Numbered from the stretch's first letter, positions 8,151 to 9,654 are shown. The stretch: DNA of 64,000 nucleotides from an uncultured Candidatus Saccharibacteria bacterium (GCA_964469335.1 CAYXYK010000001.1:235976-299975); one strand, 5' to 3'. The notes: generated by a model not told the origin, from the letters alone. Numbers and translations are program-made.

Positions 8151-8221
8151 GCGGGTATGGTTTAGTGGTAGAATGTCTGCCTTCCAAGCAGAAGACGGGA
8201 GTTCGATTCTCCCTACCCGCA
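8151..8221 (+). tRNA. tRNA-Gly (anticodon UCC)
   Basis: acceptor GCGGGTA/TACCCGC, T-arm GGGAG-TTCGATT-CTCCC, anticodon loop CTTCCAA (TCC); 71 nt. Confidence 0.9.
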
Positions 8222-8292
8222 CAGATTCAGAAATCAAAAGTCCTTACTGAGAAGTAAGGACTTTTGATTTCGTGCGGGTAGGGAGAATCGAA
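8202..8292. repeat. composite palindrome: 21-bp inverted duplicate of the tRNA-Gly 3' end flanking a 19-bp-stem terminator hairpin
   Basis: 8272-8292 GTGCGGGTAGGGAGAATCGAA is the exact reverse complement of 8202-8222; inner IR 8230-8248/8253-8271. Confidence 0.75.
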
Positions 8293-8404
8293 AGACGGAG
8301 CGGATGCCGAGCCAGCAGGCGAGGCCGCGAGTCGGGGTCGCAAGAATTTGTGAGTGGCGACGAACAAATTACTTGTGACCGATTCTCTGTGATACGATTA
8401 AATT

Positions 8405-8932
8405 ATGATATTTCTGGAAATGATAAACCCACGCTGGTCCAACCCCGAAAACGGAGGAGTAGAAGATCAATGTGTTCACGGCGAAATATTATTTCAAATC
8501 AACAATACAACTTTTGCTAACTTACAAGATGGTGAGCTGTCGCCTGTAACTGCTGCCTTGTATCTGATGCGTTCAATAGAACGCGAACACACACTAACCG
8601 ATTCAATAACTTCAGGTTCAAAAGTAAATATATTTCCGCACTGTGGCTTCACAGTCTGGGTTCAAGATAATAAACTTCTGATTATGGGGTGCGATAATGG
8701 AGTGAATTTTGAGATAAAACATCTCAACGGAGTAGTTGTTGTTGTTGATAAAAACGGAACAATAAAAACTATTTCTGAAAGTGAATGGAAGTACGCAGTG
8801 AGAAAATTTGCTGAACAAATTTCAAAGTTCTATGAAACAGAAAGTCCGAAAGAATATATTGAGGACACGACTGACCGTGAAGGCTGGGAAATGTTCTGGA
8901 AAGAATTTCATGAGCGCTTGAGTAGGATATAA
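8405..8932 (+). CDS. hypothetical protein encoded in a block that looks markedly AT-rich by eye
   Basis: ORF track; local base composition appears much more AT-rich than flanks (not computed); no family recognised. Confidence 0.45.
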   Translation: MIFLEMINPRWSNPENGGVEDQCVHGEILFQINNTTFANLQDGELSPVTAALYLMRSIEREHTLTDSITSGSKVNIFPHCGFTVWVQDNKLLIMGCDNGVNFEIKHLNGVVVVVDKNGTIKTISESEWKYAVRKFAEQISKFYETESPKEYIEDTTDREGWEMFWKEFHERLSRI

Positions 8933-8969
8933 CATATGTAAACCCTACTTTACATGCTATAATGCAGAT

Positions 8970-9497
8970 ATGACCCACTCCCACACCCTCCGCATTCTTC
9001 TTTCTGTACTGGTCGTCGCATTCGTCGTCTATCACTACTACCCACAGTTGCTTCAGAAGCCCGAACCGAACGCCGTCATGTTTTCCGTTACCGCTTCTTC
9101 CAGTCTTTCCGCAAGATCCAAACTCTCACCCGAAGCATATCGGGTCATGTATCAGTCCGGCACCGAGCGACCCTACACCAGTCTTTTACTAGAAGAGCAT
9201 CGCGGGGGGACGTATGTCAGTGCAGACACTGGACGACCACTTTTCCGTTCAGAAGATAAATTCGACTCCGGCACCGGTTGGCCATCGTTCGTGAAGCCGA
9301 TCACTCCAGATGCAGTCGTATACAATGTCGATGACACGCTGGGCGAAACTCGAACCGAGGTGCTCACTGGTGACACCCATGCGCACCTCGGACATGTGTT
9401 CGATGACGGCCCAAAAGATAGGGGAGGCAAGCGTTACTGCATGAACGGAGTTGCTCTCCGCTTCATCCCAGATTCTGCAACTACTACGACTCCATAA
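8970..9497 (+). CDS. msrB: peptide methionine sulfoxide reductase MsrB with N-terminal TM segment
   Basis: GTGWPSF ... RTEV ... HLGHVFDDGP ... RYCMN SelR/MsrB motifs; TATAAT box ends 6 nt before the ATG. Confidence 0.85.
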   Translation: MTHSHTLRILLSVLVVAFVVYHYYPQLLQKPEPNAVMFSVTASSSLSARSKLSPEAYRVMYQSGTERPYTSLLLEEHRGGTYVSADTGRPLFRSEDKFDSGTGWPSFVKPITPDAVVYNVDDTLGETRTEVLTGDTHAHLGHVFDDGPKDRGGKRYCMNGVALRFIPDSATTTTP

Positions 9498-9534
9498 GGC
9501 GAAGATAATACTCGCAGATGCACGGCGCGGGAAT

Positions 9535-9575
9535 GCGACTCGGTCAACGTACTCGAAGTACGTTGACCGAGTCGC
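9535..9575. repeat. perfect 18-bp inverted repeat with 5-nt loop (GCGACTCGGTCAACGTAC-TCGAA-GTACGTTGACCGAGTCGC)
   Basis: read directly; no T-run follows. Confidence 0.7.
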
Positions 9576-9620
9576 AAGGGTCCCGCAACAAAGCAGATGT
9601 GAGTATTTTGTTTGCCGAGA

Positions 9621-9654
9621 ACACAAAAACCACCCGAGGGTGGCTTTTGTGTTG
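9621..9654. terminator. bidirectional terminator between msrB (+) and hup (-)
   Basis: ACACAAAAACCACCC-GAG-GGTGGCTTTTGTGT hairpin flanked by A/T runs. Confidence 0.6.

Follow-up and report, generated by a model that had tools for sequence, protein, structure and literature searches.

A tRNA-Gly(UCC) gene at positions 8151-8221/8222 (plus strand) of a 64,000-nt stretch of DNA from an uncultured Candidatus Saccharibacteria bacterium (GCA_964469335.1 CAYXYK010000001.1:235976-299975; the whole stretch is termed here the window) is followed by a structured repeat module that carries an inverted copy of the end of the tRNA gene, and this module is the subject of the present analysis. The tRNA gene is recognized by ARAGORN and by Rfam (RF00005, 75.2 bits) and has no encoded CCA. 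Its final 21 nt, TTCGATTCTCCCTACCCGCAC (8202-8222, plus strand), here called Arm A, span T54 of the T-loop, the 3′ strand of the T-stem, the 3′ strand of the acceptor stem, the discriminator A73 and one further base, and are the source of the sequence copied into the module. The exact inverted 21-mer, Arm A′, is found at 8272-8292 (plus strand), as the initial annotation of this locus had stated. Between the arms there is a hairpin with a perfectly paired 19-bp stem and the loop GAGA (8230-8248/8253-8271, plus strand), also as first described; seven unpaired nucleotides, AGATTCA (8223-8229), lie ahead of it on the left side alone. When tRNA-Gly and the downstream sequence are folded as one strand, a composite hairpin of ~40 bp is predicted (−85.3 kcal/mol, z = −10.7), which bears out the proposed composite palindrome. 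If formed, this hairpin opens the acceptor and T arms of tRNA-Gly.

The 19-bp hairpin occupies the place of the tRNA terminator hairpin of related loci. The loci compared with the window, designated L001-L054, are contigs of relatives and metagenome loci, and in many of these the homologous hairpin has the canonical A-tract/stem/U-tract form. The label of terminator originally given to the hairpin fits these homologues better than the window copy, which has no U-tail and in which an intrinsic-terminator scan finds 0 sites. A hairpin is present between the arms nearly everywhere; the spacers of 34 loci have a mean folding energy of −18.3 kcal/mol, compared with −4.7 kcal/mol for shuffled sequences.

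Arm A′ is the 5′ arm of a non-coding structured module of ~110 nt, which extends over 8272-8390. Each copy of the module has the same order of parts. A terminator-like hairpin comes first, then the final ~19-21 nt of the unit's own tRNA in inverted form, next a core whose helices covary, and last a direct copy of that tRNA end. The direct copy is frequently partial, and it pairs with the inverted copy as helix P1, which closes the core. In the window (all features on the plus strand) the core is of class A, is situated at 8281-8389, and is detected with 93.4 bits and an E-value of 2e-24 by covariance model R1, described below. P1 is formed by the inner part of Arm A′ (8282-8289) and by 8381-8388. 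Helix P2a pairs GAC at 8294-8296 with GTC at 8331-8333 and has a conserved GGA/GA internal loop; P2b is a hairpin at 8300-8328, a GG(GG) junction starts at 8334, and P3 is a long hairpin at ~8336-8379. The direct copy at 8380-8389 is truncated, i.e. it reads CGATTCTCTG where the tRNA has CGATTCTCCC; it provides the 3′ strand of P1, and the acceptor part is missing. The same truncated direct copy is present in the related loci L004 and L003. In the window it directly precedes the leader of an AT-rich open reading frame (ORF), to be discussed later. A search for another direct-repeat partner of the 21-mer, allowing 3 mismatches, finds no further copy in the 64 kb (chance expectation 0), and the remnant upstream of the ORF is the only partner.

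A second copy of the family is found in the window behind the tRNA-Pro gene (699-769), at 770-938 on the plus strand, and modules are present behind both tRNA genes of the window, tRNA-Gly and tRNA-Pro. The terminator hairpin of the tRNA-Pro unit (~776-806) is canonical. Its inverted arm is split by a small hairpin (arm segments 808-819 and 845-856, hairpin 820-844), and is followed by a class-C core (857-927) and a direct-repeat remnant, GAGATTCTCTG (928-938), all on the plus strand. The arm-splitting hairpin, of the form AG-stem-YUGC-stem-CGU, recurs at the same spot in many units.

The window unit is one copy of an uncatalogued family of structured modules that trail many tRNA genes of the candidate phyla radiation (CPR)/Patescibacteria. 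Members were sought with a scan pattern that consists of the tRNA-Gly 3′ end, 25-55 nt, and its reverse complement, with variable positions entered as N. The pattern is matched by two species representatives, a ‘Parcubacteria group’ metagenome-assembled genome (MAG) and a Candidatus Saccharibacteria MAG, and by 33 metagenome loci; conserved proteins of the window are ~70-78% identical to those of the ‘Parcubacteria group’ MAG, which points to a CPR/Patescibacteria source. For the metagenome sample, tRNA-Gly loci were picked in which the inverted arm is complete. Downstream of this arm, most loci have 75-200 nt of GC-rich sequence in which certain motifs recur, and then the direct copy, full or partial, after which a second terminator hairpin often comes. 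There are at least three types of core. Class A, which includes the Gly unit of the window, has GAAAG, a 3-bp helix, the GGA/GA internal loop and a hairpin, followed by a GGGG junction and a variable long hairpin; class B has two GGGG-rich hairpins; and class C has a long hairpin, then GUACUG, then a short hairpin whose loop is UGUAA.

Covariance model R1, built from an alignment of 20 class-A units, finds 38 copies at E<0.01 in CPR loci. All copies with enough upstream contig are 34-290 nt downstream of a tRNA gene and on the same strand, and the tRNAs ahead of them are Gly (UCC, GCC and CCC), Val, Pro, Arg, Phe and Glu. By inspection, the same cores are also found behind tRNA-Phe, Val, Trp, Pro and Arg genes of the same contigs, where the arms copy the 3′ end of that particular tRNA; one unit situated behind a truncated tRNA-Leu copy has an arm that matches the T-loop of that copy. 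Units are repeated in tandem in L003, L026, L043, L050 and L053, and also after the tRNA-Pro gene of L037. The layout in L003 is an example: behind the tRNA and its own hairpin come a degenerate unit and the 21-mer as a perfect direct repeat; a second hairpin is next, then an inverted copy interrupted by a small hairpin, and finally the ORF. Genes that recur near modules encode YraN-like proteins, the CCA-adding enzyme, HU and Xer-like proteins; these look like lineage synteny and not like a protein linked to the module.

A covariance search of the window and 10 loci against Rfam 15, permissive thresholds included, gave tRNAs as the only match; the other hits, to microRNA precursors and a few unrelated families, are weak and far under gathering scores, and are read as chance. 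The searchable literature, as far as an incomplete search coverage reaches, contains no description of tRNA-end repeats or modules in CPR. A paper on tRNA introns of Patescibacteria covers anticodon-loop introns only and does not mention 3′ flanks, and a link to group I introns was set aside on this ground.

A side observation concerns the hairpin of the family. Its 3′ arm has a conserved stretch, (G)ACTATATTTT(T)GTAGCGGG, in L024, L026, L029, L035, L037, L040, L042, L047, L053 and L054. The TATATT box of this stretch is ~7 nt ahead of the first G of the inverted arm and is absent from the window copy. It could be a candidate −10 element that gives the module a start of its own.

Might the palindrome be an ordinary feature, such as a long terminator hairpin that arose by chance or through neutral lengthening of a palindrome, or what is left of a tRNA-Gly pseudogene in convergent orientation? 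Inverted repeats are known to grow and to become homogenised through template switching (PMC8604942, PMC13100816, PMC7202029), and loci that have only the inverted repeat do occur. However, the inner boundary of the arm is fixed at T54 and the same conserved core comes next, and this core covaries, as shown below. In addition, an inverted copy of the tRNA end within 400 nt is present in 0 of 280 control tRNAs, taken from phage tRNA arrays, compared with 32 of 64 tRNAs in the Gly-selected CPR loci. The sequence past the arm is not the complement of a tRNA body, and the convergent pseudogene was rejected on this ground. An ordinary origin is therefore considered highly improbable.

Covariation was assessed on the 20-unit class-A alignment with the structure named above and 500 shuffles. 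Standard pairs are formed by 88.6% of the cells (70.2% in shuffled alignments), and cells in which both sides have changed number 84 (24 when shuffled). The covariation score of 0.463 was reached by none of the 500 shuffles, which have a score of 0.154, and sliding the 3′ partner by 1-3 columns brings the score down to 0.05-0.10. In class C, which includes the tRNA-Pro unit of the window, both sides have changed in 19 of 31 pairs.

The two strands of the module are not equivalent. All 20 units fold better as the tRNA-sense strand, the mean advantage being 9 kcal/mol, and the pairs in the units include 25 GU/UG compared with 13 AC/CA. In the module regions of L022-L054 the motif GCGAAGC occurs 16 times and its complement GCTTCGC once; GCGAAGC is also 11-fold enriched there over the rest of the loci, and CGAAG and CGAAAG together occur 59 times compared with 13 for their complements. 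GCGAAGC is placed in the loops of hairpins, and class-B units have it as a mini-hairpin that is inserted into their direct repeat. Fold energy, the G·U excess and the strand bias of the loop motifs point to the tRNA-sense strand.

Alternative folds are available to such a strand. In the window, a long hairpin in which the 3′ half of the tRNA pairs with the inverted arm is 16 kcal/mol better than a cloverleaf with a separate module. Where the direct repeat is complete, the lowest energy, by a margin of 6-12 kcal/mol, belongs to a domain-swapped tRNA in which the 5′ strands of the acceptor and T-stem pair with the distal copy while the inverted arm sequesters the proximal 3′ half. The fold adopted in vivo would depend on co-transcriptional order and on termination at the hairpin.

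The arms follow the tRNA. The scan pattern leaves five positions of the arms free, and in a set of 32 non-redundant palindromes with 10 alleles all five are complementary between the arms in 29 loci; when the arms are re-paired at random, the mean is 6.7 such loci, and no more than 15 are reached in 10,000 trials. A close comparison is provided by L004. Its tRNA-Gly has a different acceptor allele (...CCCGTCCCGCAC) and its inverted arm is altered likewise (GTGCGGGACGGGAGAATCGAA), so that both arms differ between the window and L004 at precisely the two positions that differ in the tRNA; the hairpins differ by two compensatory base-pair changes. The tRNA-Trp unit of L052 is also informative. 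The T-stem of this tRNA has a G·U pair, and the arm sequence GAAGG complements the 3′ strand and is unlike the 5′ strand of the tRNA, GAGGG. It pairs Watson-Crick with the 3′ strand and is therefore a true reverse-complement copy.

Identity between the window and L004 is 96.9% for the module core, 100% for the 14-nt leader, 86% for the hairpin, 85% for the ORF and ~74% for the msrB region, and it is 66-68% for the 5′ two-thirds of the tRNA; values for the tRNA body lie between 66% and 74%. In the tRNA-Gly gene, the window shares 94% identity with an unrelated metagenome locus (L031) and only 73% with the relatives closest by protein (L004 and L003). It seems from these alignments that the tRNA allele was exchanged while hairpin and core remained orthologous. 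An inverted arm that fits the new tRNA allele beside an orthologous hairpin and core points to templated rewriting of one arm from the other; the change does not look like independent mutation. Template switching and the homogenisation of inverted repeats have been documented (PMC7202029, PMC8604942, PMC13100816).

In the most likely mode of action the module is the template of an RNA. It would be transcribed in the tRNA sense, by a polymerase that either reads through the hairpin or initiates at a start within the unit, and the closing helix of the module RNA would reproduce the acceptor/T-stem stack of the neighbouring tRNA. Enzymes that act on tRNA ends could therefore handle the module RNA, or pairing of the tRNA 3′ half could be contested, and the RNA would function as a mimic of, or competitor for, the tRNA end. 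Templated copying from one side of the palindrome to the other, i.e. template switching or intra-palindrome conversion, would keep the arms the same as in the resident tRNA. The initial annotation had offered as its second option an unusual tRNA-linked RNA structure that could pair with the tRNA 3′ half. This comes close to the data, but the regular partner of the inverted arm is the downstream direct copy, and the locus belongs to a large family. Taken as a whole, a tRNA-sense RNA module whose arms are re-templated from the tRNA is the best explanation, and we consider it evenly poised between right and wrong.

The main rival, which is not mutually exclusive with an RNA role, is that the module is a small non-autonomous mobile or recombining DNA element that uses the tRNA T-loop as a crossover, with att-like direct copies and an incidental RNA fold. 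The inverted copy and the folded core would then be features of single-stranded DNA or of a recombination intermediate. The direct repeats run from the T-loop to the tRNA 3′ end, as do sites of T-loop-type integrases, and units occur in the tandem arrays listed above. L043 has the core and the related L051 lacks it, and GAATCGAA marks the exact boundary. L043 also has the first 66 nt of a tRNA-Leu twice, flanking a module (1213-1531), and the upstream copy diverges within the T-loop and has no 3′ end; the T-loop is thus the breakpoint of this duplication. Another tRNA-Gly allele appears in arms or direct copies of L034, L042, L046 and L052, and the mosaic identity to L004, with a core at 97% and a tRNA body at 66-68%, also suits recombination, as does the one-strand enrichment of the DNA-stable GCGAAGC. 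A XerC/D-like recombinase is encoded 1-3.5 kb away in six loci.

Several properties of the family count against a mobile DNA element. No recombinase or transposase adjoins any module, and the Xer-like genes resemble ordinary synteny. Nothing similar is seen on viral contigs, phage records or plasmids: a BLAST search with 8223-8935 against phage and plasmid collections found nothing, the 43 matches of a 16-mer from the core to viral contigs are consistent with chance, and model R1 has a single weak match on viral contigs, in a coding region with no tRNA near. The 21-mer was considered as a phage attP, and this was rejected since all 15 matches on viral contigs are complete tRNA-Gly genes in phage tRNA arrays. 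Furthermore, the module never changes its orientation to the tRNA; GNRA-type loops, G·U pairs and the nucleotides of the junction show conservation as in functional RNAs; and an inverted copy of the core site is not a product of a classical integrase. We regard a recombining DNA element with an incidental fold as possible but doubtful.

It should be pointed out that a number of observations weigh against the proposal of a re-templated RNA. The tandem arrays, the presence/absence differences and the T-loop breakpoints of L043 suit a recombining DNA element at least equally, and GCGAAGC is known above all as a DNA mini-hairpin of great stability. Transcription of the module may be poor because the upstream hairpin is a good terminator in many loci. 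The arms of L034, L042 and L046 differ from the resident tRNA and have another tRNA-Gly allele, and the direct copy of L052 differs from its resident tRNA as well. The inverted arm is found without a core in L051 (compared with its relative L043) and in L038. The direct copy has no acceptor part in the window and in roughly half of the other copies, and a full tRNA-end mimic is therefore not kept universally. Lastly, module frequencies are biased because the sample was chosen for tRNA-Gly loci with a complete inverted arm.

A more far-reaching proposal is that the modules represent a new class of tRNA-templated element in CPR bacteria, either a structured RNA or a selfish RNA/DNA entity, that settles behind a tRNA gene and gains inverted and direct copies of the tRNA end. 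Its product would be a processed acceptor-arm mimic, possibly CCA-tagged or chargeable, or a domain-swapped long tRNA whose cloverleaf is completed by the distal copy. We put this forward tentatively, as an idea that is probably not correct in full. If it were true, there would be a new layer of tRNA biology, or a form of site-specific spread that needs no integrase.

The modules share properties with several known systems. Integrase sublocation classes in tRNA genes are said to have been described by Williams in 2002. The T-loop-type attachment (att) sites resemble the module in that a block from the T-loop to just past the discriminator is involved and direct copies flank extra DNA behind the tRNA. 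The module differs by its inverted copy, by 100-250 nt of non-coding structured DNA, and by the absence of an integrase; its arrangement also differs in that it follows many different tRNAs and is common to relatives. The tRNA-like domain of tmRNA, bacterial YrlA, viral tRNA-like structures and mascRNA are likewise RNAs closed by 5′-end/3′-end pairing. Modules with a full repeat close with the acceptor and T-stem of a real tRNA and have the same discriminator and trailer, and a 7-bp acceptor-like helix with a free discriminator is predicted in L005, L006, L042 and L053, but not in the window, where the repeat is truncated. In contrast to the tRNA-like RNAs, the T-loop bases of the module are paired in P1 and not looped, there is no Rfam match, and the acceptor part is lost in many copies.

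Miniature inverted-repeat transposable elements, repetitive extragenic palindromic sequences and bacterial interspersed mosaic elements (REP/BIME), and Correia elements are also short, intergenic and repeated within a genome, have inverted ends and stable folds, and are sometimes in tandem. The ends of the module, however, copy the adjacent tRNA and not a fixed element sequence, and position and orientation are tied to the tRNA. Integron attC sites and the CTX phage attP hairpin are folded single-strand recombination sites. As in these, the module has spaced inverted copies that resemble a target and can fold as a target-mimicking duplex, and it can form arrays; unlike these IntI- or Xer-dependent sites, it has no cassette ORFs and no attC or dif consensus. 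The primer-binding site of retroviruses and long-terminal-repeat retrotransposons is similarly complementary to the 3′-terminal ~18-21 nt of a tRNA, but the module has no complement of CCA and there is no reverse transcriptase nearby. A primer-binding site of the retroviral type was rejected, as TTTC (...GATTTC) is found 5′ of the arm instead of TGG. Hammerhead and other small ribozymes, the kink-turn, box C/D RNAs, retron non-coding RNA, bridge RNA and omega-RNA were compared by eye, and none agrees with the conserved nucleotides or with the surrounding genes; the resemblance of the GGA/GA internal loop to a kink-turn is only loose.

Quasipalindrome template switching shares with the module the templated rewriting of one arm from the other (PMC7202029, PMC8604942, PMC13100816). 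Since template switching rewrites an arm, it would explain why the arms change together with the tRNA while hairpin and core are orthologous. It is, however, a mutational process and not a system, and it leaves the conserved core and the fixed T54 boundary unexplained.

Downstream of the module and outside it is the AT-rich ORF, which encodes 175 aa (8405-8932, plus strand). The tRNA 3′ ends are classical integration sites, and the initial annotation had read the palindrome as a scar or an att site, left by a foreign element with which this ORF arrived. The composition is indeed foreign-looking: the ORF has a GC content of 0.383 compared with 0.516 for the window, the lowest of any 528-nt stretch in the 64 kb (0.22 percentile), and it is compositionally the most deviant segment of the window. 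The description of the ORF as an orphan is correct insofar as only two near homologues, with 84% and 55% identity, are found among 5.8 billion proteins. A profile search nevertheless extends the family to 507 representative proteins (E<=1e-3), of which 276 reach E<=1e-10; the majority are single-domain proteins of ~175 aa. A 60-sequence alignment of this family shows invariant residues at C23 and H25 and almost invariant ones at C80 and C96, and AlphaFold with this alignment predicts a well-defined structure (predicted local distance difference test score 94, predicted template modelling score 0.90) with weak fold matches. The protein has no Pfam, NCBIfam or PHROG match, the sole PADLOC match, to LmuA, is marginal (E 0.004), and tblastn against phage and plasmid collections found nothing. 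Distant family members are found in variable contexts, as fusions with DUF3885, next to DUF4279 genes and, in one case, beside a phage-type integrase. An immunity-like accessory role for the ORF protein is suggested by these relationships as a weak lead.

The variable contexts and the integrase neighbour of one distant member would suit an integrated element, but the locus itself does not. There is no repeat beyond the ORF, the remnant of the direct repeat being upstream of it, and between tRNA-Gly and msrB in the window there is one ORF only and no integrase. The ORF is common to three relatives and keeps its site in L004 and in L002/L003. Both near homologues are just upstream of msrB, and tRNA-Gly is upstream in L004 and L003, the sole contigs that reach it. 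Amino acid identities of the ORF product and MsrB are 84% and 88% in one comparison and 55% and 60% in the other. Divergence of the ORF tracks that of MsrB, and the ORF is therefore a lineage-specific gene of atypical composition and not a recent insertion bounded by the palindrome. Conversely, palindrome and module are present in many genomes that have no such ORF. It is absent from the palindrome loci L005 and L006 and from 30+ metagenome loci; an HU gene follows in L005 and L052. Comparison with relatives thus goes against the annotation in one half, the palindrome being found without the ORF. Of the features by which islands and prophages are recognized, the ORF has the atypical composition; a distal repeat, an integrase and variable presence among the three relatives are not found. 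The att-scar reading is largely refuted, and there is very little chance that it is correct. Between the module and msrB, the ORF forms an accessory gene of its own, specific to this lineage.

If the module functions as an RNA, a structured RNA that is widespread in CPR bacteria and so far uncatalogued is tied physically and informationally to individual tRNAs, which would bear on tRNA maturation, quality control or mimicry under the pared-down machinery of some of the smallest known genomes. If it is a DNA element, there is a route to target tRNA genes and copy their ends without an adjacent integrase. Either way, repeats of tRNA ends in these genomes are a poor guide to island boundaries, and the modules account for assembly breaks at these tRNA genes. 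In this regard, the short-read contigs of the relatives L001, L002 and L004 start inside or at the tRNA-Gly palindrome, and modules seem to break de Bruijn assemblies.

Some minor observations concern the neighbouring genes. In several loci the gene that follows the module in the same orientation encodes a small redox protein, glutaredoxin/NrdH-like in L042 and L047 and MsrB in the window (8970-9497); this may be a coincidence or may reflect a shared transcript. Upstream of tRNA-Gly, L003, the relative with 55% identity, has on the minus strand (2-481) a gene with the look, by eye, of an Xre/DUF2384-type antitoxin, whereas the window has a haloacid dehalogenase (HAD) hydrolase gene; if this gene reading holds, both flanks of this tRNA-Gly would be variable. 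Between the convergent msrB and HU genes of the window there is a perfect 20-bp palindrome with a 3-nt loop (9534-9576) and a 16-bp hairpin (9620-9653), and these two are probably bidirectional terminators.

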